From Hormiphora californensis (taxonomy: Eukaryota > Animalia > Ctenophora), in NCBI GenBank assembly GCA_020137815.1, contig CM035351.1, positions 9,858,001 through 9,922,000 of the forward strand: DNA of 64,000 nucleotides. The letters run 5' to 3'. This document shows, piece after piece, positions 11,690 through 64,000 of the stretch (position 1 is its first letter; each line of letters opens with the position of its first letter). Position numbers and translations under genes: made by a program. Under the pieces are notes generated by a model. That model worked only from the letters and a program-made list of their open reading frames with translations. It had not been told where the DNA came from and did not search any database.

Positions 11690-13400
11690 CAACATCTCGA
11701 AAAGCATGAAATTGCGTGCAGAATGGATCTACACTGCAGTAGTTAGACCGAACCTTGAATACGGGATAGAAATAACAAACACCGCACTACAAAACAAGAA
11801 AATAGCTAACAAACTGAGAAGCGTCCAAGGGAAGGCACTAAAAATGATAACTGGAGCACTAGCAACTACAGCAACGGCAGACCTAAACATTCTTACAGAC
11901 TATATTGACATAGCTGAACACCTAAAAGTGAACGTGGCAAAAACCATTACTAAACTAAGAAACGAAGGACAATGGACCAAAGAAAAACCGAAACACAACG
12001 GACACAAAAGTATTGACGATAACATAAGACGTTACATAGGCCACAAACAAATCGACACAGCCACACCGACGTCCGACACTCAACTTGGATACGGCCTTCA
12101 CCACAACCGTGCCAGACGACCCAAACGAGTACGCAAAAGAAGCTGAAAAAGAAATGGAGAGTGACACACCAATTCAATGCTACACAGACGGATCAAAAAA
12201 TGAAAAAGGAGAAACAGGCAGCGGAATATTTATAATAAAACAAAGGAAAGAAATTGTCAGAAACTCTAATAACCTACCGGACACATCGACAGTATTCCAA
12301 GCGGAAGTAATAGCCATCACGAAAGTAGCGAAAACAATGATAGAAAGTAAACAAGAACATGAAGAAATAAATATCTGGCTGGATAGCCAGGCAGCCATAA
12401 AAGCCCTAATGTTATATCATATCACTCCCGCTCCGCGCGACCATTTGCACGGTGAAATATGCACTCTGCTTCCACGGGAGCATGCAGATATAGGGGTAGC
12501 GGGATATAAGTAAGAACAGTGTCCCTCAGTGTTTTTACACCTTATTCACACACAAACACACAGAATATGACTGACAAGGTACCACACAACACATTTTACA
12601 CTCACTCTCCCTGCAGCGGGGGGAACTCAGGTTCTTCGTGCCAGCTGAGTTCTTCTAGCTCAGTCCCGTTGCCGTGGACCTGGTTGGCTGATGGTCCAGT
12701 GATTACGGTCAAATCACACCGGCTCTCTCCCCAATCTTGGGGAGTAAACTTTGCCAGAGACCTTGCCGAACTCAACTATGGCACCGAGCTCTTGCAGTGC
12801 GACTGGTCCCTGCTGGGATTTGGTTCGGCGGTCGATTGATGAGCGGTTGGTTGACGATTGATATCAGTCGTTGATCGATCGTTTGTCGGTCGGTCGTCGG
12901 GCTGAGTCTTAGTGGGGATCCCGGTTGAACTGATAATCTCACCCCAGCCAGTAACCTTGTTACACATGGCAACCCATGATTTGTAATCACCGAGGGCCTC
13001 TGCCTACTAGGCATGCCTGATGACCCTTCGGCTGTCTCCCATTTAATTATGGGGGTAAATTCTACGCCAGAGAACTAGCCTCCCTCAATTATGGCAACCC
13101 ATGATTTGTAATCACCCGGCAGCTGTAGCCTTTAAAACAGCCCTCCTGTCCAACATCCCATATTGGTCGGACGGAGGTTACCTTCTCTCGCAAAAATAGG
13201 GGTTATTCCCCTGGGGAACCTCTGCCCAAATTTTTGCCACATACTACCTTTGCAGCTCCTCCACTGCCCCGACCTAGATGAGCTACGATACAAGCTCGAC
13301 TACCAAGATATCATCAACAACATTCTCACTCCCAGCAACACACTGGATCTGCACAAATTCTCCAAATTAGTATACAGAAGTAACCTATTCGAATAAACCA
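11690..13400 (+). mobile_element. 3' part of an RNase H-containing LINE (I/R1/LOA group), interrupted by an LTR-like insert
   Basis: YTAVVRPNLEYG; RNase H motifs YTDGSK, TVFQAEVIAI, DSQAAIKAL; C-terminal HCPDLDELR at about 13260. Confidence 0.85.
12410..13241. mobile_element. Probable solo LTR
   Basis: Begins TGTTATATCAT, the same start as the LTR at 62181, exactly where the RNase H frame breaks; ends ...GCCACA. No TSD recovered. Confidence 0.45.
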
Positions 13401-31269: not shown

Positions 31270-34085
31270 CGCCTACGAGCAAGCTGTTACTGCTTAATGC
31301 AAGGAGTCCAGCAGGTGATACAGGTTGGAAACTCGGAGACTGTGTTACGCAAGAGAAAACTCCCAAAGTAGCCATTGCAGTAACTGAGACTTGGTTTGAG
31401 GGTTATCATTCTGATGCTCAGGTTCAGATACCAGGGTATGACGTATATAATAGAAGTGATAGAGAGAACCGAGTCGGCGGAGGCTGTGCCTTATATGTTC
31501 AATGTTCGCTGGCTGTTTCTGACAGTATATATTTTGCGAGTGGGAATAACAATATGTGTGTATGTTGATCAAATAAACACTATTTATGCTGCTGTGTATC
31601 GCTCCGAGTCAAGTGTGTTAGACTTTCAAAAGCTGATGGACAATTTGCAGACTTTTATAGATAAACACAGTGATGGATGATTATCAGAGGTCGTAATTTC
31701 TGGGGATTTTAATCTTCCTCTTTTTCAGTGGTCCGATGGTTCGTCTGTCCCGGTTGATCAGCCTAACTACAATGTTGTTGATTTCATAGACACAAACTTT
31801 CTATCCCAAGTTGTTGAGGGCCCTACAAGAGGCAACAACACGCTAGACCTTGTGTTTACCAACCGTCCAGAATATTTCAGCGATATTTCTATTACGGATG
31901 GGGGTATCTCGGACCATTTCTGGGTATCATGTGAACTATCTTTCAACCCTCTCGGTCCTAAAAGTTTATTTCTTCCCAGTACACTTGAGGGTTATCGTCA
32001 ATTGGATCTTCAGTCGGCTGACTTCACTAGTATTGATGCGGAACTAGCGGCTACTGATTGGGATCGAATGTTGACGGAATGTGAAGAACTGGGAGACGAG
32101 GATGGTTCCCTTTTTGTGGAGGCCATGCGTGACAAAGTGTTCAAAGTTGTAAAGTCACACTGTCGTCTGTCGGTTGAAGAAAATCAGAAAAGAGTTTGTG
32201 GACAAAGAACTGAAACACTTAACTAGCAGGAGACGTAAATTGGTTAAACGAGAGGACGATTCAAACAAATCGAAATCACAGATGGACTGTATTATTGGAA
32301 GGATAAAGGACCATCTGATATCAAGGGACAAGAAGTCAGAGAGGAAGGCTGTGAGCTGTCGGCGTAATTAAAGAAAACCCGAAGTTCTTTTATTCACACG
32401 TCAAGAGGAAATCAAAGGTTAAATCTTCAGTTGCACCCCTTGAGCGTGAAGATGGTTCACTAACTGTGGATCCTCAAGATAATGCTGGACTACTCCAACA
32501 CCAGTTTTCCAGTGTTTTTAGTGATCCTTCCGCTATCGACCCCGCAGAGGCGGCTGGTAACGTGGAGGACCTTGGTGAGATCCTGACAAGTTTGGAGTTT
32601 TCACAGGAATGTATCCAGACTGGCTTGAAGGAACTTAAACCATTCTCAGCATCCCCTCCTGACTGCATTCCTTCTTTTGTTCTGAAACAGTGCAGCAGTA
32701 GCCTGGCATACCCGATTTGTTGTGGAACAGGTCATTTGAAGACGGATCTGTCCCTATAGTTGCTTAAAGCAACAGTTCATAACACCGTTATTCAAGAAGG
32801 GGGCTAAATCGAAACCTGTGAATTATCGCCCAGTGTCTATAACAAGTCACCTGTCTAAAGTGTTTGAGCGGCTGGTGAGGAAACGGATCAGTGACTACTT
32901 GGACGAGATGGAGTTGCAGAGTGACACACAGCATGGTTTTAGGAAGGGGCGCAGTACCATGACACAAACCCATGTTGACATCATCCTATCTGAACTATGC
33001 GGTGATCAGGAAGTCGATGCTATCTACTTAGATTTTAGTAAAGCATTTGATTCCGTGGATATCAATGTTCTGCTAGCTAAATTGAGGTGATATGGTATTG
33101 GAGGTCAACTCCTTCAGTGGATCAGTGCGTGGATCCTGGGCAGGAATCAGTGTGTAATGGTGGATGGAGTGAGGTCGCCCTGGGTTGAGGTACTTAGTGG
33201 GGTTGCCCAGGGTAGTGTGCTCGGACCACTTCTTTTCCTCATATATATTCTTGACCTGGAGACAGTACTAGACGGTAGCATGTGTCTAACTTTTGCTGAC
33301 GATACTAAGTTTGTAAAAGCTATTTCGGATATGAATAGCCAGGCGTGCCTACAGAACGATCTTTTAAGAGTGGCAGAATGGGCAAAGAAGAACAATATGA
33401 AGTTACATGAGGACAAATTTCAGCTCTTGAGCTATAGTCTGAATAAGTCTGCTATCCTCAGACAGTTTCCTTTCGCAGCTGAAGTGTTTTCATACACTAC
33501 AAGCTCAGGTGTGCAGTTGACCCCCGAACCTGATGTTCGTGATCTGGGTGTCCAGATGTCTTCAGATGGGTCATGGACGAGGCACATTTCTATCATAGTG
33601 CGGAAGGCTTCCCTCTTGAGTGACTGGATATTCAGCGTTTTTCGGAACCGTTCTCCGGAGGTTATGGTACAGCTTTTCAAGTCCTTGGTCAGGCCTATTC
33701 TTGAGTACTGTTGCCTAGTCTGGAACCCTTCCAAGGCTGGTGATATCAAGGCTATTGAGAATGTCCAACGTTGTTTCACCAGACGTCTTGATGGTATGCA
33801 GGGTCATGACTATTGGGATAGACTGAAATTGCTCAATCTTATGTCCCTTCAGCGTCGGAGACAGCGCTACATTCTGATTCATGTGTGGAAGACGATTCAT
33901 GGTTTTGTACCTAACTCTGCCAACCTAGTATTTCAACAGCACGCTAGACTGGGTATGCGGATAGTCCCACCACCTTACCCCTATAGAGCAGAAACGAAAC
34001 GAGCTAATCAATTTCACTGCTCATTTGGTCCAAGAGCAGCTCATTTATGGAACACTCTACCAGCTAAGGCCAAATTTTCGACGTC
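31270..34085 (+). pseudogene. LINE ORF2 remnant (AP endonuclease + reverse transcriptase), CR1-like
   Basis: APE motifs: VTETWF, DRENRVGGG, GDFNLP, PTRGNNTLDL, SDH. RT motifs: NYRPVSITS, QHGFRKGRS, YLDFSKAFDSV, GVAQGSVLGPLLF, FADDTK, VRPILEY...WNP. Frameshifts and stops present. Confidence 0.95.
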
Positions 34086-35174
34086 AAGGCATCGCAATCA
34101 ATAAAGCCGCCACCGGACAGCTCCTATACCTTCTCTCCCACGAAACGACAAAACCACGAACACTCCTTGATCGGGGACAACATCGAGGAGGAGCCTCGAC
34201 ATTTGCTCCCTCTGTATGGAGGGAAGACACCAGCTTCAGGCCTGCCCTCTGAACAGGCCCACATCTCCGCTCCGGATCCTGCGGCGTTTCAACCTGTGTG
34301 CCTGCCGGGAGTTATCGAGGACCGTAAACCTGGATCCGAATACGCACATCGAGAGGACCATAGTGGACCAGTTCCTATGCGACCACCATCTTCCTCGCCA
34401 ACACGTCCAGCAGCAGCGCCCGACTGAGGACAACACCATACTCGATCTGCAACTAATTTGGCAGGTCTCGTATCCCATACCCAATTAGTTGCAGATACCG
34501 AATAATTTCACCGATTCGTCTCCCGTATCCCATACACAATTAGTTGCAGATACCGAATTACTTCACCGATTCGTCTCTCGTATCCCATACAGAGATAGAG
34601 AGATCACGTGAGAGAAACCCTATTTCTGGCTGCTAAAATCTATTTCTGGCTGCTAAATCTATTTCTGGCTGCTTGCAGCCAGAAATAGGTCTAGCAGCCA
34701 GAAATAGCAGCCAGAAATAGACTGTCGAGCAACTGTGCACCTGCCGTGAATTTTTCAAAACGTGAACCCCGGTCGGATTTCTTGAACACGTATTTTTGAC
34801 TTTAGGACGATATATCTGACGATTGGTAAGACTTGGAACGTCAATCTTGCAACCAAAATGTTCGCCAGACAATTCTCTAGAACACTGGTTTTTGTTAGAA
34901 CCATGTTGACCAATTTTTCGATGAGTTTTGATTAATTTGACGGAACCCGGTCATGACCAGTAATCGCAAGTCACGCAAAGACAGTGGGACACTACTACCA
35001 TCTTTCGATTCCAATGAATGTTCATAAATTTTCAGTGGTGATTAGGCTTGCTTTTGCGTGGGACGTGGGTGCGGTACCTTTTTTAAATGTGCATATTTCT
35101 AGCTTAGAAGATATCTCAAAATAATCTTATGAAACGAGTAGAGAAGACACCGAAGGCATTACAGTGAGAGAGAA

Positions 35175-39067: not shown

Positions 39068-40328
39068 GTTTATGGACAACTGAGACAATGATTTTATTGC
39101 AGGAAATAAATCACACGACGGTTTCGTCGAACATCGACATCATCAGGCTGCTAAAATAAGGTCACATTAATTAAAATTTAAATTTGACTTGCCAAAATAT
39201 TTTCCCGCCAAAACCGAAAAAGCCTAATAACCCTAGAACGGGGTGGGGCCAAGGTCTGGCCCCACTAGGTTTTGATCACCTCATCTAGCCCGATCGAACG
39301 CGACCAATGACGACCTCCTACGACGACCTAAACCCGTAATCCCACGTGGTGCCAGCCAACCGCCAGCCAAACGGTATCTATCACCTGGTATCAAAATCTA
39401 AGCTCTAAGTGACCAGGAACTGGTATTATTAGTGCTAATTGGTTATAACGTCATAAATCACATAATTACGAATAATTAGTGAACCGGGGGTGGTAGAGAC
39501 CTGCGGGATGGTGCTTTGGACTTTTCATAGAGTCCTTAATCATATCAGCAAGTCAAATTTAAAATTCCAGACCCAACTTCCCACAACTGACCCTACTACT
39601 CCACGATACTTAAACTTCCCTATATTAGTGAATCATTTTCTGAGTTTGTAATTTCATTCATACGGTCACACACTCTTCCCATCCGAGTTGTGTTTACACC
39701 AGGTACCAAGTTGAGAAACCTGTTTTGCAAATCGAGACCGTACGACAGAACACACTGTCACATTACTAACTGTCTTGTATGCCCCCTCATGACCCATCCT
39801 ACTTTGGATTGTACTGTCAAGGGAGTGGTATACAAGATAGTGTGTAAATTATGTAATGAAATATATGTGGGTGAGACGGCTAGACCGTGCCGTGAGCGTT
39901 TCAAGGAGTACAGATTGGCAGCGAAATCGCCCAATATCTACCCTAACGAAGCACTTGCAGCATACTACCAATCACAACACAATGGAGAACCCCCTGATTT
40001 AGAGTTTGACATATTGGCAACTGGCTTGGACCAGCCAGTCAGACGAAAAGTCACGGAGGCGATCCTAATCAAATCTCTTAAACCTAGCATTAACAAACGA
40101 GAAGAGGGAGAAAAGATCGAACAATATATTATCTGATACAGTATCTGATTTCTGATTCCTAGTTTGCGTGTGATGTATATATTGTATAGTTCCTATTTCG
40201 TGTATTTTAGATATTAGACATTAATTAATGTGACCTTATTTTTAGCAGCCTGATGATGTCGATGTTCGACGAAACCGTCGTGTGATTTATTTCCTGCAAT
40301 AAAATCATTGTCTCAGTTGTCCATAAAC
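39068..40328 (+). mobile_element. 5'-truncated Penelope-like element (Neptune-like) with inverted partial pLTR
   Basis: GIY-YIG ORF to 40136 (CHITNCLVC linker, GVVYKIVCKLCNEIYVGETAR, RKVTEAILIKSLKPSIN). 39068-39174 is the reverse complement of about 40220-40328. A MITE-like piece lies at about 39175-39600. Confidence 0.9.
40244..40286 (+). ncRNA. Minimal hammerhead ribozyme motif in Penelope pLTR (inverted copy at about 39110-39152)
   Basis: CTGATGA, then stem II GTCGA/TCGAC, then GAAAC; stems I and III are weak. Confidence 0.65.
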
Positions 40329-43966: not shown

Positions 43967-45052
43967 AGACAGTTGGGTGATCGGATAACTGTTTATTAGC
44001 CTCATGTTTGATATTCAGAGTTTTTGTTATTCTCTCTGTGGCTGGACAAATGAATCAGACGGGTATAATGACGCTACCAGTTTCGAGGATCTACCTCTTC
44101 ATCGGGCTACAAAAATAAATAGTGTTAATTATAAATATATAGTAAAAAACTAAAATCACACACGTCAATCAACACAAAATTATAAATCAGCACTTTAATA
44201 ATAAACTAAACACTGTACAGAGGAGCAAGTCTCATATGATCAGTACAGAGTGAACTGAAGTTACCGTTACAATACAGCAGGTGAGATGCAGTGATAAACA
44301 AATAGGGCGTGCATGAGGTGATACACAAGGACTATCACAAATTAATACAAACTATTACGCACACAAACACACGAACCCACTGGACAACAACAACAACAGC
44401 AACTAAATATTAAATTAAATATCTCGTAAGTTCGGAACATTCCTCTTTATTGTTCATACCAGGTCTCAGTTTCTGTATATACATGGCCTCTAAAATTTTC
44501 CTCTTTAAAATGTTTCTCTCGGTGGTTACTATCTTAACCCCCTAAACTCAGTTTTAAGATATTAACCACCGAGAGAAACATTTTAAAGAGGAAAATTTTA
44601 GAGGCCATGTATATACAGAAACTGAGACCTGGTATGAACAATAAAGAGGAATGTTCCGAACTTACGAGATATTTAATTTAATATTTAGTTGCTGTTGTTG
44701 TTGTTGTCCAGTGGGTTCGTGTGTTTGTGTGCGTAATAGTTTGTATTAATTTGTGATAGTCCTTGTGTATCACCTCATGCACGCCCTATTTGTTTATCAC
44801 TGCATCTCACCTGCTGTATTGTAACGGTAACTTCAGTTCACTCTGTACTGATCATATGAGACTTGCTCCTCTGTACAGTGTTTAGTTTATTATTAAAGTG
44901 CTGATTTATAATTTTGTGTTGATTGACGTGTGTGATTTTAGTTTTTTTACTATATATTTATAATTAACACTATTTATTTTTGTAGCCCGATGAAGAGGTA
45001 GATCCTCGAAACTGGTAGCGTCATTATACCCGTCTGATTCATTTGTCCAGCC
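43967..45052. mobile_element. Palindromic truncated Penelope-like element (second family), TSD ACTGATGGCTTT
   Basis: Arms of about 500 bp fold at about 44545. The right arm encodes the GIY-YIG tail KILTTERNILKRKILEAMYIQKLRPGMNNKEE. The left arm has an extra tail of about 70 nt. The 12-bp duplication is single-copy in the opposite arm of the host MITE. Confidence 0.88.
44981..45028 (+). ncRNA. Variant hammerhead motif (CCGATGA core); other copies at about 44065-44112 (-) and 40726-40770 (+)
   Basis: CCGATGA-A, stem II GAGG/CCTC, GAAAC, tggtagc, then GTC cleavage triplet. Confidence 0.65.
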
Positions 45053-47396
45053 ACTGATGGCTTTGTTTTTAAATTAAATTTCAAAAGTTCATTTTTCATG
45101 AATGAACATTCCTGTCATTCATTCGTGAATTCTGAAATATTGTTTACCTTGAGTAAAAAACTTTTCTTTGGCTCGAAATTATCTTTCCAATGAGCACCAT
45201 AAAAATCAAATTGAAGCACCGGATCGCATGGCAGGTGAGAAAATACAAATGCATGATTTTGGCCATTCCTGCGACTTTCAATCAGCTGTATCACCGCTAC
45301 TTTCAGTTCAATCCTTTTAAAAGTTTGGGTGAACATTGGTGAAGATAAGATCTTTGCTCACAAAAAAAATCAAGTTCAAAACTCAAAGTTCATTTTTCAT
45401 TTTTGGTAGTTCATTCCACTCATTCAGGAACAAACATCCCTAAAGTGACGAAAAGGTTTGGGTTTTGTTTGGCCCATGTCCTGAAACGACAGAGAGGAGT
45501 AAAAACGTGTTTCCGGGCTAGTTAGTGGGTGTCCATGTGATCATTATGATATCTGACACCTTTGCTGAGCCATAATTAAGAGATTTTCTCAAACTCAAAC
45601 ATGGGATACAAGTATTCTGCGATTGGTATCGTGCACCAATAACAAGAGATCCCATAGCACCTCAAAAATTATGATTAGCTAAATGAAATGAGTTTATTTA
45701 CGATTGAAAAGATTAAAACCAATGTAAAGTCGGACTAAACGAACATTTTCAAGCGTGAATCAACTCATTTCATTTAGCTAATCATAATTTTTGAGGTGCT
45801 ATGGGATCTCTTGTTATTGGTGCACGATACCAATCGCAGAATACTCGTATCCCATGTTTGAATTTGAGAAAATCTCTTAATTATGGCTCAGCAAAGGTGT
45901 CAGATATCATAATGATCACATGGACACCCACTAACTAGCCCGGAAACACGTTTTTACACCTCTCTGTCGTTTCAGGACATGGGCCAAACAAAACCCAAAC
46001 CTTTTCGTCACTTTAGGGATGTTTGTTCCTGAATGAGTGGAATGAACTACCAAAAATGAAAAATGAACTTTGAGTTTTGAACTTGATTTTTTTTTGTGAG
46101 CAAAGATCTTATCTTCACCAATGTTCACCCAAACTTTTAAAAGGATTGAACTGAAAGTAGCGGTGATACAGCTGATTGAAAGTCGCAGGAATGGCCAAAA
46201 TCATGCATTTGCATTTTCTCACCTGCCATGCGATCCGGTGCTTCAATTTGATTTTTATGGTGCTCATTGGAAAGATAATTTCGAGCCAAAGAAAAGTTTT
46301 TTACTCAAGGTAAACAATATTTCAGAATTCACGAATGAATGACAGGAATGTTCATTCATGAAAAATGAACTTTTGAAATTTAATTTAAAAACAAAGCCAT
46401 CAGTTAGGAAGGAATTAATCCAGCACACTCCCGTAGTTTGTTTTCACACAACTATCACCGTTTTTGCGTGACAGCTCGCCAACCGACCCACAGAATATAT
46501 GGGACACCCTGTAATTAGCGGGTTCAAAACGAACAGATACGTGATACCATGCCGAATCGGGGCACCCTAACCGGGTTAGGAAGTATGAAAATTTCAAAAT
46601 AACTTTTTCTCTCAAAATTTATGGGGAGCACCGATCAAAGCATTGACAATCGTACTGTAAAATTTTGCAAAAAAGTTTTAAAATTTTTTAAACGTATACC
46701 AGCCACGTCCGAATCGTGTTTTGAATCGGTACATCTTATCACATGTCCTGCTGCTAATTAGACGGTTCGGAACGAATCGAAAAGTGATCCCCATCGAATC
46801 GAAATTTTGACGCTTGGTGAACTTGTGATTCAATGGCCCCATGGGGATCACGTATCGGTTCGTTCCGAAACTTCTAATTAGCAGCAGGACATGCGATAAG
46901 ATTCACTGATTCGAAACACGATTCGGACGTGGCTGGTATTTTCAAAAAAATTTCACAAAAAATTTCACAAAAAAAATTCAAAAAATTTTTGGGGGAAAAA
47001 AATCCTGTCCCTAAATCGGGGTGTCCCTAAATCGGGGGTCCCTAAATCGGGGTCCGGCTGTAACAGCTGTATAAGTTGTCACGAGACGATTGATATGTGT
47101 ATTTTGTTCGAAATAACGCCCTAAAACATACTTTTTGAAATGAATATGCCCATATATGGGCATAGCTCGTGCCAACGTAATTGGGCCATGGTAGAGCCAA
47201 AACTTTGTGATAAAATGTTTTAGAATGATCGTAGGAGCTCATTTAACCCGATACCAAGTGAAATTTTGAATTAAATTAGGCATTTGAAAAAATAGCACAC
47301 GCGAGACCAGTTCGAAGGTCACACAGTGGCCCCCACTCCAAGCATTATGATGCTGCGGACGGTGACACCAGCCCTTCAAGGTTGGGACAGCAGTAT

Positions 47397-50139: not shown

Positions 50140-51876
50140 AGCTGGTATTAATAAACGGGGATTCGCGGATTCGCGGATAATGTCCCGGATCGCGGATAAA
50201 ATCGCGGATAATTAATCCCGGATTGGATCGCGGATCGCGGATAAGTAATCACGGATTGCGGATCGGGGATAAGTGATTGCGGATTGCGGATTGCGGATCG
50301 CGGATTGCGGATCGCGGATTGCGGATCGCGGATAAGTAATCGCGGATTGCGGATCGCGGATTGCGGATCGCGGATTGCGGATCGCGGATCGCGGATTGCG
50401 GATCGCGGATAAGTAATCGCGGATTGCGGATCGCGGATTGCGGATCGCGGATAAGTAATCGCGGATTGCGGATTGCGGATCGCGGATAAGTAATCGCGGA
50501 TTGCGGATTGCGGATCGCGGATAAAAAATCGCGGATAAAAAATCGCGGATAGAAAATCGCGGATAAAAAATCGCGGATAAAAAATCGCGGATAAAAAATC
50601 GCGGATAAAAAATCGCGGATAAAAAATCGTGGATAAAAAATTGCGGATAACAAATCGCGGATAACAAATCGCGGATAAAAAATCGCGGATAAAAAATCGC
50701 GGATAAAAAATCGCGGATAAAAAATCGTGGATAAAAAATTGCGGATAACAAATCGCGGATAACAAATCGCGGATAAAAAATCGCGGATAAAAATTGCGGA
50801 TAAAAAATCGCGGATAACGTTTTTATCTCTTTTTAGGTAATTTGTGGTCATTCTCAGGTGATTTTGATCGATTCCAGGTCATTTTGCTCATTTCTATGTC
50901 AATTTGGCCATTTCTGTACCATTTCTTGGCCACGTTGGTCAATTCTAGTTCATTTCCAGGTCATTCCTGTATATAGTGCATTGTGCTAGACCATTTTCGT
51001 GTGGATTTAGATGGTTCTGGGACACTTTGGTCAATTACGAGTAATTTATGTGTATATTTGGATACTTTTAGGACTCTAATGTGACCGAAGTGTCCTAGAA
51101 CCATCTAAATCCACACGAAAATGGTCTAGCACAATGCACTATATACAGGAATGACCTGGAAATGAACTAGAATTGACCAACGTGGCCAAGAAATGGTACA
51201 GAAATGGCCAAATTGACATAGAAATGAGCAAAATGACCTGGAATCGATCAAAATCACCTGAGAATGACCACAAATTACCTAAAAAGAGATAAAAACGTTA
51301 TCCGCGATTTTTTATCCGCAATTTTTATCCGCAATTTTTATCCGCGATTTTTTATCCGCGATTTTTTATCCGCGATTTTTTATCCGCGATTTTTTATCCG
51401 CGATTTTTTATCCACGATTTTTTATCCGCGATTTTTTATCCGCGATTTTTTATCCGCGATTTTCTATCCGCGATTTTTTATCCGCGATTTTTTATCCGCA
51501 ATCCGCAATCCGCAATCCGCGATTACTTATCCGCGATTACTTATCCGCGATTACTTATCCGCGATCCGCAATCCGCGATTACTTATCCGCGATCCGCAAT
51601 CCGCGATTACTTATCCGCGATCCGCAATCCGCGATTACTTATCCGCGATCCGCAATCCGCGATCCGCAATCCGCGATCCGCGATTACTTATCCGCGATCC
51701 GCAATCCGCGATTACTTATCCGCGATCCGCAATCCGCGATCACTTATCCCCGATCCGCAATCCGCAATTACTTATCCGCGATCCGCGATCCAATCCGGGA
51801 TTAATTATCCGCGATTTTATCCGCGATCCGGGACATTATCCGCGAATCCGCGAATCCCCGTTTATTAATACCAGCT
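50140..51876. mobile_element. 1.7-kb foldback element with 3-bp TSD CTT and ATCGCGG arrays
   Basis: TIR AGCTGGTATTAATAAACGGGG; removing it restores GDFNTPCIEW. Confidence 0.9.
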
Positions 51877-52678: not shown

Positions 52679-53808
52679 GGGCAGGTCGGTAGAACTTCGA
52701 CAGAATTTAGGGTAGGTCAATTTAGGGTAGGTCTGAATTTAGGGTAGGTCAATTTAGGGTAGGTCTGAATTTAGGGTAGGTCTGAATTTAGGGTAGGTCA
52801 ACTTAGGGTAGGTCTGAATTTAGGGTAGGTCTGAATTCAGGGTAGGTCCGTAATGTATCGTTTATCAAAGCATTGCAATTCGACATTAGATTCTGATTAG
52901 GTCGCTGAACCGCGTCCCGTATCTCGTATCTCTTCGATCTTAGTCACCGATTAGGTCGCTGAACCACGTCCCGTATCTCGTGTCAACTCATTGAAATTCG
53001 AGGTTAGACACAGATTAGGTCACTGAACCACGTCCCGTATCTTGTATCAAATCATTACAATTCGAGGTTAGACAAAAATTAGATGGCAAACGAATTTCAT
53101 TTGATGCGATATGGAACACAGTCTACCGACCTAACTCAGTTCACCTACTTTAAGTAGTAGGGTAGCGACTGGCTATTTGAAATGGCGGCTAATTTGAAAT
53201 ACCCCCTCTACAGGCCAGCAGTTGCACCAGATTTGGATTTTTAGACATCAGTGGGCTAGTCAGAACTCATGCCAAGCCCACTGATGTCTAAAAATCCAAA
53301 TCTGGTGCACCTGCTGGCCTGTAGAGGGGGTGTTTCAAATTAGCCGCCATTTCAAATAGCCAGTCGCTACTCTACTTAGTGTCGGTGACTCGAATTTCAA
53401 TGAGTTGATACGAGATACGGGACGTGTTTTAGGGGCCTAATTTGAGTCTAACCTCGAATTTCAATGAGTTGACACGAGATACGGGACGTGGTTCAGCGAC
53501 CTAATCGGTGACTAAGATCGAAGAGATACGAGATACGGGACGCGGTTCAGCGACCTAATCAGAACCTAATGTCGAATTGCAATGCTTTGATAAACGATAC
53601 ATTACGGACCTACCTTAAATTCAGACCTACCCTAAATTCAGACCTACCCTAAATTGACCTACCCTAAATTCAGACCTACCCTAAATGCACCTACCCTAAG
53701 TTCAGACCTACCCTAAATTTACCTACCCTAAATTCAGACCTACCCTAAATTCAGACCTACCCTAAATTGACATACCCTAAATTCTGTCGAAGTTCTACCG
53801 ACCTGCCC
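52679..53808. mobile_element. Foldback element with TTTAGGGTAGGTC subrepeats and a nested palindrome (53156-53376)
   Basis: TIR GGGCAGGTCGGTAGAACTTCGAC; related GGCAGGTCGGAA ends at about 2784 and 3200. Confidence 0.85.
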
Positions 53809-54716: not shown

Positions 54717-55171
54717 AAAACTCAAAATTTTTTTTAAATGTAACCCTTTGTTATTATGTACATATAATACTCTAGTTAATTAATCGATGTGTTGAAACTT
54801 AATTAATAAAATAGAAAAATTTGTTTCCATCCTACTCAATTTTTTTAAACTCAGGATCCTAGTCGGATTGAGATACTTTGACACTGGGTCACTGTGTGTA
54901 TTGGCCCCAATCTTGCTCTCTCTTACTCAAATATGTTAGGAACAGTTGCAACTAGGTGCCAGTTAGTCTACACACAGTTTGGGGACGTCTGTTGACTATT
55001 TTTTAAACCAGTTTAATCGCCCTGCCGGGCGATTAAACTCCAGTTGGCTCTCCCCAGCTAGCGCTGGGAAAAGCCAACTTGATAACGCGCCAAGCTACAA
55101 ACGTTCATAGTTCATTTGTGCCATACCACTAGAAAACACTTGCAATGTCAGTGCTTAACCCCGAAACTAAC

Positions 55172-55342
55172 CTGATAGAGTTAACACTGCCAGAATGGCC
55201 GAGGTACTTCAGTAGACAGTTTTTACCATCTGCTTGCCAAATTCGAGCCGTTTTATCATTGCTAGCTGTGCCAATAATAGCCTTTCCTTTCAACCAAGAG
55301 CAATAACATACATCCCAAACGCCGTCTTTGTGTCCTGAATAT
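55172..55342 (-). CDS. WDR37: WDR37-like exon (WD40 repeats 1-2)
   Basis: tttag acceptor and gttagt donor; 171 bp, phase 2 to 2. Encodes YSGHKDGVWDVCYCSWLKGKAIIGTASNDKTARIWQADGKNCLLKYLGHSGSVNSIR. Not in the ORF track. Confidence 0.92.
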
Positions 55343-55410
55343 CTAAATGTATAAAACGAATCAATGAGTATTATAGATTTAAAGACATTTACTTAATAGG
55401 TATATAGGTA

Positions 55411-61965: not shown

Positions 61966-62180
61966 GGTACCACTGCATGATACGGCAACCCCAAAAACGG
62001 GACACACTGCATTATACGGCAACCCCAAAAAGGCAACCCAAAAACGGGGCGCCACTGCACTATACGGCAACCCCAAAAACGGGGCACCACTGCATTATAC
62101 GGCAACCACAAAAAAGGGGCACCACTGCATTATACGGCAACCCCGAAAAAAAACACACGGGGCACCACTGCATTATACGG
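61966..62180 (+). repeat. Tandem repeat of about 38 bp
   Basis: GGGGCACCACTGCATTATACGGCAACCCCAAAAAC, 5-6 copies. Confidence 0.85.
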
Positions 62181-63227
62181 TGTTATATCATGATTCCTTC
62201 ACATTGACTTCATCATGTACGCGGAGAGATTACATCATGCCTGGGAACCACAGGATGGCTACGATGATATTGGATACCTCGAGGAGTACCTACGTCAAGC
62301 GGAATCGATAAGATGTTTTACCTACCATCTTTGATATGACTACGAGGAGCACCTACGTCAAGCAAGAACGGGAAGATGTTTAACATACGATCTTTGTTAT
62401 GTCTATCGTGATGACAGAGGAAACAAGGCACTGCACTATATAACCGAGATGAAGAACTGGGAAGAGGACCGATCCGCTACTACCACACAGCATCCCTATA
62501 GCGGAACAAAGACCCCTACCTCCCCTGCACCGCCAAGCTATCCTCCTTGACTCTCCCACGGATACCCGATTGTAATAGCAAGATTACCTTCACCTTGCTA
62601 TAACCTGTAGTTGTCTCGTGTACCCTATTCCCTAAACCAGTAAACTTTACTCACCCACACGTCACGGGTCACCACACAACCACCTTAACAAGTGGTCCCG
62701 TATCAGGCTCCACTTGTTAAGGTGGTTGTGTGGTGACGTGTGGGTGAGTAAAGTTTACTGGTTTAGGGAATAGGGTACACGAGACAACTACAGGTTATAG
62801 CAAGGTGAAGGTAATCTTGCTATTACAATCGGGTATCCGTGGGAGAGTCAAGGAGGATAGCTTGGCGGTGCAGGGGAGGTAGGGGTCTTTGTTCCGCTAT
62901 AGGGATGCTGTGTGGTAGTAGCGGATCGGTCCTCTTCCCAGTTCTTCATCTCGGTTATATAGTGCAGTGCCTTGTTTCCTCTGTCATCACGATAGACATA
63001 ACAAAGATCGTATGTTAAACATCTTCCCGTTCTTGCTTGACGTAGGTGCTCCTCGTAGTCATATCAAAGATGGTAGGTAAAACATCTTATCGATTCCGCT
63101 TGACGTAGGTACTCCTCGAGGTATCCAATATCATCGTAGCCATCCTGTGGTTCCCAGGCATGATGTAATCTCTCCGCGTACATGATGAAGTCAATGTGAA
63201 GGAATCATGATATAACATATCCCCCTT
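62181..63227. mobile_element. Inverted pair of LTRs joined by a PBS-like spacer; PPT adjacent to the right copy
   Basis: TGTTATATC...CCTTAACA at 62181-62690 and its reverse complement at 62715-63217. Spacer on the minus strand reads AGTGGAGCCTGATACGGGACCACT. AAGGGGGATA (minus) at 63218-63227. Confidence 0.85.
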
Positions 63228-64000
63228 GTTTATTAAAAGGTAATTACATTGACCTTTGGGCTATGTAATTTCCTTATCAGTGTAAGGTACATATTTTATG
63301 TATTCATTCATACAACGATGATTTTTTATTGGTGACAATGTTTGCCCCTACATTTGTAACCTTTTCGCATATATGCCGATTCGAGGTTGAGAAATGCATT
63401 CATACATGGCAGAGTGAGATTTATTAACAATTATTGATGTAGATTCAAACCAGGGTTTTGGTTGTGACGACATTTTTAACCTGTTGTATACATCGTATGA
63501 GGTTGATAAAATTCACTCATACAAGATGGCAGAGTGAGAAGTTAGGGGTTGGCTTATTCCATATTATAAAAACTTCGTACGAATACTACCATAGTTATAA
63601 CAGCCATGTGCATATTTGTAGGTGCAAATATTTAATATAGTTCCAAGCGAAGATGTTGGAATTTAAGCGTGTGATCCAGTAGTGTATACTGTATGTGATC
63701 GTTTTGTGTTCATAACACTCTTCTTGTCCATCTTCCGAATACGTGAAAATGGTCGAATCCTCAATCCATATCACTAGCCTGCCAATCCATCCCTGGGTGA
63801 TAAACCAGTTTTTCGATCCCTCAGCCGAAAATTAGATGTGTCCAAAGATCGGGGATAACTATTTGGTTCCAATGGGTAGGGTGGGTTATCAATGACAGGA
63901 CGCTAGGGCAACCTTGCAGTAGCGATTTATTCTTTCCTGGAGATCTTGTCCTCTATCTTTCTCCTTTCTTTCTCTTGCCGGTACTTCCTCAGCTCTTCCT

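Follow-up and report, generated by a model that had tools for sequence, protein, structure and literature searches.

Two LTR copies joined tail to tail through a spacer matching tRNA-Lys(UUU): a rearranged retrotransposon copy and its possible origin in faulty reverse transcription

In the window (the whole stretch of DNA analysed, 64,000 nt), the region 62181-63227 consists of two back-to-back LTR copies joined via an 18-nt spacer that matches tRNA-Lys(UUU). The fold is a real rearrangement, recent and at a single locus, and the structure is a one-off fossil. The element itself is an LTR retrotransposon of the integrase type, present here as a rearranged copy. How did such a copy arise? It is very probable that the fold itself formed at the cDNA stage. 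The full explanation that we favour, tentatively and short of conviction, is that this is a three-LTR copy with an inverted core, made by one faulty reverse transcription and integrated once via two normal ends. The features are these:

61966-62180, plus strand: host tandem repeat with a unit of about 35 nt, the insertion site of the element; high-copy in the genome
62177-62180, plus strand: ACGG, left copy of a likely 4-bp target-site duplication, read from the sequence
62181-62690, plus strand: left LTR, 510 nt, TG...CA; its U3 end abuts host DNA
62666-62672, plus strand: 7-nt insertion, in the left arm only, between two 5-nt repeats; six equivalent placements, starting at 62661-62666
62691-62695, plus strand: AG-TG(G) after the left LTR, spacer plus the first 2-3 letters of a primer-binding site (PBS), read from the sequence
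62695-62712, minus strand: putative 18-nt copy of the tRNA-Lys(UUU) 3' end, positions 59-76, by match to the tRNA of contig L001 plus CCA
62713-62714, minus strand: AG between LTR and primer copy, read from the sequence
62715-63217, minus strand: right LTR, TG...CA, 503 nt; lacks the 7-nt insertion, as is usual in the family
63227-63218, minus strand: polypurine tract (PPT), AAGGGGGATA, read from the sequence; directly adjoins the LTR
63228-64000, minus strand: 3' part of the internal region, running off the window; its frame ends with two in-frame stops at 63777-63998

On the minus strand, from 63227 to 62181, the order is PPT, LTR, AG, 18-mer, CA-CT and an inverted LTR that ends at 62181, followed by the host tandem repeat. 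An earlier, sequence-only reading had described this same order, with a 503-nt LTR followed by AG, the 18-mer and a fold-back LTR, and the description is correct. It had also held that the arms are identical apart from a 7-nt indel near the fold. Alignment agrees: there are 0 mismatches and one gap, at 62666-62672, with the additional letters on the left-arm side. A repeat scan of the window gives arms of 485 nt at 100% identity, so the arm match is not due to chance. The fold-back copy does stop at the terminal TG, as had been noticed; at 62181 it gives way to the host repeat and the PPT is absent there. Compared with the left LTR, the core and the LTR attached to it run in the opposite direction; no sense core lies between two direct LTRs here, and the element copy at this locus is rearranged. 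The right LTR has a TATA-like motif at LTR position 257 and an internal 63-nt tandem duplication. The AG-TG(G) at 62691-62695 may represent the end of a short plus-strand strong-stop template. Because tail and stem have 1 nt in common at the join, the tail is 17 or 18 nt long.

One concern with any perfect palindrome is that it was made by the assembly or the library. The arms are indeed perfect, the library types are off record, and one of the two samples that carry the joint (S1 or S2) may be the source of the assembly. At least half of the stretch is present in six organism A runs, which come from three samples in two studies. Contigs were compared for four of the 16 listed runs over 62630-64000, and for two of those four again over 62080-62775. 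The fold together with the 7-nt insertion is spanned, with 0 differences, by a contig of run X1 (62655-62751, depth 27.8; sample S1, study P1) and by a contig of run X2 (62636-62743, depth 431.9; sample S2, study P2). The same joint in two samples of two studies is not an assembly fold-back, which is what the sequence-only reading had feared. In X2 the left host junction (339), the fold (432) and the PPT junction (390) have nearly equal depths. The PPT is crossed with 0 differences by an X2 contig (63189-63453) and by a contig of run X4 (63189-63456). The left host junction is crossed in X1 (62142-62210) and X2 (62116-62209) with 30 and 29 LTR-side letters, overlaps slightly below the 31-letter threshold. 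Among the eight pieces listed for X4 (sample S3) none spans the fold, and the depth over 62630-62675 is 58; run X8, from organism B, has zero cover over that interval. No RNA runs are among the listed carriers of the stretch. An artefact would have to account for a joint and insertion seen twice at the depth of neighbouring junctions, for a loop that is tRNA sequence and not adapter, and for a left arm that ends at a host junction. Largely refuted already, it is very improbable indeed.

What is the spacer? It had been called PBS-like and tRNA-derived, and a tRNA that fits it has been found. Metagenome contigs were scanned for a consensus T-loop motif together with the complement of the spacer, and this gave one locus, on contig L001. 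ARAGORN identifies it as tRNA-Lys(TTT). The gene is without encoded CCA, has a T-run downstream and is of eukaryote type. Once CCA is added, the spacer matches the exact complement of this tRNA over 18 nt, positions 59-76. The next base is A58, which we take to be the modified-base (methylated A58) stop for tRNA-primer copying. L001 is a metagenome contig and not host genome, and the spacer match rests on its tRNA; nothing in the L001 flanks matches the window beyond the 15-nt tRNA end. The gene (L001 198-273, minus strand) has a T at the discriminator position. Its 20-letter 3' pattern occurs in 1 contig across the whole metagenome collection, and the isoform looks lineage-restricted. A scan with the tRNA pattern gave 0 viral contigs and seven prokaryote contigs, 0 of the seven being tRNAs. 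No tRNA gene was found within the 64-kb window.

Perhaps the 18 nt were already in the chromosome. In this scenario a tandem element with one shared LTR (PPT-LTR-PBS) suffered a break or template switch inside a genomic 18-nt PBS, and its repair produced an inverted duplication. LTR elements often occur in tandem (PMC11042837), and several other long inverted repeats lie in the window. However, the relatives' PBSs do not fit. The LTR-PBS contigs listed are of two kinds, which match tRNA-Lys(UUU), after a 2-nt spacer, over 10 nt (X1/X4 type) and 12 nt (X2 type) only. In both types these 10-12 nt are followed by a mismatched stretch and then by 6-7 nt matching the T-loop complement (loose ends at 62701 and 62703). 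The PBS of the family thus looks split in two parts, much like the two-part PBS of Ty1. Spacer letters 13-18 are missing from the PBS contigs listed for both relatives. The U5 end differs in these two contigs, which apparently belong to relatives, and the PBS of the source element may not be the same as theirs. Another clue is depth. In bin 62680-62703 the leftover depth is 470 against 3887 in X2 and 137 against 250 in X1. A contig with an 18-nt PBS, if it were as deep as the fold, would need more than this, which counts against a genomic 18-nt PBS. Judged by these matches, letters 13-18 were likely copied from the primer itself and not from a genomic PBS, and the comparison supports the spacer as a tRNA-primer copy. 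A chromosomal fold-back would, in addition, require a break that hits the 18-nt limit exactly and rejoins at PBS position 2-3, and it leaves a second tRNA match, to positions 46-54, without explanation. It is quite improbable.

This second match concerns the 7-nt insertion, which lies 19-25 nt from the left arm's U5 end. The X2 depth over 62630-62675 (375.6) is explained by the fold contig alone, which makes the insertion private to the left arm. Where did the letters come from? Positions 62661-62669 equal tRNA positions 46-54 (9 nt), and 62666-62672 equal positions 44-50. This is the stretch just past the A58 stop. Of 7568 simulated duplications, 24 gave a tRNA match of at least 9 nt, as did 70 of 20000 shuffled tRNAs and 49 of 20000 pieces drawn at random from the window, so that its chance is about 0.003 across the three nulls for a match noticed post hoc. 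A simple duplication of neighbouring sequence would also account for five of the seven letters, and slippage that added two further letters is a possible alternative. The new strand's end at the insertion point is complementary to tRNA 46-50, and these 5 nt offer a possible way onto the tRNA template.

The host junctions bear on how the molecule was integrated. The host repeat has a summed contig depth of up to 553,888 in X2, against 339-432 at the single junctions, a summed depth being no copy number. The sequence-only reading had predicted a duplicated ACGG beside a far U3 end. A second ACGG does exist, but it adjoins a U5 end that is oriented like the left arm. There, a U5 end without the insertion is followed by ACGG and the continuing host unit, in X2 with 11 loose letters and in X4 with 28. 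This junction was found in two of four runs over 62630-64000 and found again in X2 over 62080-62775; among the loose ends listed, 24 of 108 rows for the first interval and 12 of 32 for the second, there is none in X1, and no far U3-ACGG junction either. Left junction and U5-ACGG amount to a 4-bp duplication around normal U3-to-U5 ends, the two junctions not being linked on one molecule. For an unrelated insertion at the same repeat phase and strand, the chance is 0.00001-0.001 under assumed ranges with target preference excluded. The U3 end of the left LTR is likely the element's true left integrase end.

This matters for the snap-back that the sequence-only reading had proposed. There, the tRNA-tailed plus strand of a minus-strand element primes itself and recopies the LTR as far as the PPT nick, and the product integrates by two U3 ends. 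With one abnormal event it would account for the loop, for the LTR copy stopping at TG, for arms that are identical and for an error near the fold. Self-priming by reverse transcriptase on HIV-1 minus strong-stop DNA is known in vitro (PMC6088434), and the predicted U3-ACGG junction could be outside the loose ends listed. An observation that does not fit is the U5-ACGG of X2 and X4, which LTR recombination cannot derive from a two-U3 structure. Another is that no second identical LTR-AG-PBS joint shows in X2, although contigs cannot prove its absence. The X2 fold contig starts 30 nt before the insertion and ends 30 nt past 62713, as unique 31-mers predict (k=31 assumed). It continues without a break to 62743, where a second copy with the same U5, AG and a 10-18-nt PBS would be expected to cut it at 62724-62732. 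The X1 fold contig reaches 62751, beyond the branch point that a U5-ACGG junction should create; this argument from the contig graph thus does not hold for X1, and even for X2 it may be flawed. The pairing is a further difficulty. The tail pairs over 1 nt, and in a 120-nt fold this pair has a probability of 0.004; nowhere in its own 523-nt strand does the tail find a complement of at least 4 nt. With 1 nt of tail-stem pairing, the joint can be explained just as well by transfer to a second strong-stop strand, or by the joining of two ends, as by a snap-back. This evidence does not support the fold-back arm as the new U3 end of a minus-strand element with its normal 5' LTR outside the window, and the simple snap-back geometry is probably wrong. 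As an explanation of the locus, it is improbable.

What if the host junctions and the fold arose separately? An ordinary insertion or solo LTR with its ACGG duplication might later have undergone LTR-homology recombination with a same-subfamily cDNA, without integrase. The incoming cDNA could have been hairpin-closed, tail-to-tail or a circle with an inverted core, with a deletion perhaps afterwards, and the fold would still be a product of reverse transcription. Under this hypothesis both host junctions need no special cause. There are about ten near-identical LTR copies in X2, by a rough estimate from depth (3085-3968 against 339-432). The Tf1 cDNA often enters existing elements integrase-independently, and about half keeps a single-stranded PBS tail (PMC11042837); LTR circles predominate in fly oocytes (10.1101/2022.09.25.509424). 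However, the Tf1 products in the accessible part of that study are direct tandems or conversions, none inverted (PMC11042837). Moreover, the step count is at least equal and no crossover is visible, the left arm being equal to the right arm apart from the insertion. Two stages are possible, if rather unlikely.

A single faulty reverse transcription, our preferred explanation, might have proceeded as follows. Plus-strand synthesis would copy the still-attached primer and stall at A58. The sense strand would then extend past the LTR and include a copy of the tRNA-Lys(UUU) primer that ends at position 59. The imperfect PBS of the family would leave the tRNA-copied tail unable to anneal normally. 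Its 3' end, with 1 nt of pairing, may then jump or fold onto a short strong-stop strand ending LTR-AG-TG(G), or join the primer's CA remnant. About 26 nt into the new strand the polymerase would briefly template on tRNA 44-54, which would produce the 7-nt insertion. Synthesis would continue to the template's end, the terminal TG, and this would be why the PPT is absent from the inverted LTR. With a core inverted between direct outer LTRs two joints are needed, and the second, outside the window, would return to a forward LTR and thereby give a normal U3 and a normal U5 end. Integrase would insert the molecule once, with a 4-bp duplication. The product, LTR(+), tRNA copy, LTR(-), inverted core, LTR(+), would be a dead copy.

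Several observations point this way. The 18-nt match is exact and ends beside A58, whereas the relatives' PBSs listed match over 10 and 12 nt only. The insertion has its 9-nt tRNA match, about 0.003 in three nulls, with the reservations that it was seen post hoc and that 5 of 7 letters equal a local duplication. The arms are identical over 503 nt despite many common family variants. U5-ACGG is present in X2 and X4, the X2 depths of junction, fold and PPT are about equal, and the limits of the X2 fold contig coincide with unique 31-mers. Other observations do not help. No single molecule ties U5-ACGG to the locus, and the host repeat is present in many copies; X1 is without U5-ACGG among the loose ends listed and its fold contig runs to 62751. 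Two abnormal jumps are required. The tRNA copy in Ty1/Ty3 is 12 nt and not 18 (PMC5371799).

Ty1/Ty3 would provide the parts for such a joint. Their plus-strand priming is repeated: a first strand, described as a dead end, carries a copy of 12 nt of tRNAi-Met, and a second one stops at the U5 end; the PBS is bipartite (PMC5371799). With two such plus strands, both joint partners would be present in one particle. The likeness to the dead-end strong-stop is an LTR followed by a primer-tRNA copy other than the inherited PBS; the difference is that the Ty1/Ty3 copy is of 12 nt and in particles, whereas here 18 nt of tRNA-Lys(UUU) are joined to an inverted LTR in a chromosome (PMC5371799). Plant three-LTR elements offer another comparison. 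They have a flanking target-site duplication (TSD), involve template switching, and their two cores share an internal LTR (PMC1950507; 10.1101/452573). On our preferred explanation the present structure would resemble them in having a third LTR inside one insertion, a single TSD and near-identical LTRs (PMC1950507). It departs from the Sabot and Schulman type in the inverted direction of its internal LTR and core, in the one core that is visible and in a joint formed by a tRNA copy (PMC1950507). Two complete same-direction cores sharing an LTR were not found, and the PPT-linked core in X2 is at single-junction depth.

PBS-tailed cDNA ends can also be captured without integrase, as in Tf1 (PMC11042837) and in HIV-1 junctions with 2-15 PBS letters (PMC2797772). 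As in these captures, an unprocessed U5 end keeps its dinucleotide and primer letters and is joined by microhomology; unlike them, with their tails joined to host DNA or a direct-repeat element, the tail here meets another LTR tail to tail (PMC11042837; PMC2797772). In flies, second-transfer PBS annealing depends on alt-EJ factors (10.1101/2022.09.25.509424). No LTR pair joined tail to tail via a full primer copy was found in a full-text search, judged by titles and abstract openings and reaching few subscription journals and little older retroviral work.

Inverted repeats in a retroelement are shared with DIRS and Penelope-like elements. DIRS have them at the element's two ends and are not known to have a PPT, tRNA PBS or TSD. 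In Penelope-like elements they overlap the end of a GIY-YIG reading frame, and no PBS or PPT is known. In contrast, the present copies abut, their LTRs end in TG...CA, and they come with a PPT and a site for a tRNA primer; they look one-off, not the family's normal form. A DIRS or tyrosine-recombinase retroelement was rejected because the arms abut and a PPT and tRNA match are present, and a Penelope-like inverted repeat because a PBS and PPT are present and the adjacent frame is without a Pfam match.

The family to which the element belongs has TG...CA ends, a PPT abutting the LTR and, in relatives, a tRNA-complementary PBS after a 2-nt spacer. Contigs of the runs show that the LTR family is multi-copy and polymorphic, with many common variants. 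The internal region is covered by organism A contigs, and by organism B contigs that are more diverged and have gaps. Organism B, a second species (run X8), has a diverged relative of the LTR and internal region over 62715-64000. The element's coding part is outside the window; a 74-residue frame fragment inside it had 0 of 99 candidates at E<=1 and 0 Pfam families. Its single representative match, P0002, was set aside as repeat-inflated, 9 of its 29 identities being repeated four times. The LTR end pattern was found in 0 viral contigs. Two other arrangements were considered. A large internal palindrome with two PPT-linked cores was rejected, as X2 has one contig at single-junction depth over 63228-63411, and the depths in X2 speak against a solo-LTR allele with the same left junction, since that junction (339) is not deeper than the fold (432).

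What might the locus tell us? It probably preserves, within a chromosome, an intermediate of reverse transcription that is otherwise met with in particles alone, with the primer copied to beside A58, longer than in the PBSs of the relatives seen. Possibly the rest of the tRNA also served as template. The sequence-only reading suggested a route to genomic palindromes; the present locus is the single case that shows it. Should the inverted-core structure prove right, a molecule whose plus-strand transfer failed would still be able to integrate and seed a perfect palindrome. A single locus is a curiosity for retrotransposon specialists, and its weight depends on further cases. One speculation, which we regard as a long shot, is that a PBS which is short and split need not make the tRNA-tailed plus strand a dead end: a jump or fold with the tethered tRNA as passing template would regularly rescue it, giving integrase-competent inverted-core three-LTR copies. 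If true, perfect palindromes of 500 bp would arise again and again from copies of this kind, and transcription from the left LTR would yield hairpin and antisense RNA directed at the family itself.

The window as a whole is eukaryotic-looking, repeat-rich DNA with a WD40 coding stretch and other retroelement fragments. The WD40-repeat stretch (55132-55392, minus strand; PF00400, E 5e-8) is probably a host-gene exon, about 7 kb from the insertion. A reverse-transcriptase fragment (33091-34104; E 3e-9) and an RNase H fragment (12040-12513; E 1e-6), both on the plus strand, apparently belong to other retroelements. There is a second perfect palindrome at 44144-44947, with 394-nt arms at 100% and a 16-nt spacer. 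Its right arm opens with a 47-residue frame that is 40% identical to the end of frame 39591-40136, and that frame has a weak GIY-YIG match below the Pfam cut-off. This palindrome is likely a Penelope-like inverted repeat. Further long inverted repeats, at 45053-46404, 205-1090, 50140-51876 and 52687-53801, three of them with internal tandem arrays, resemble fold-back or miniature DNA elements.
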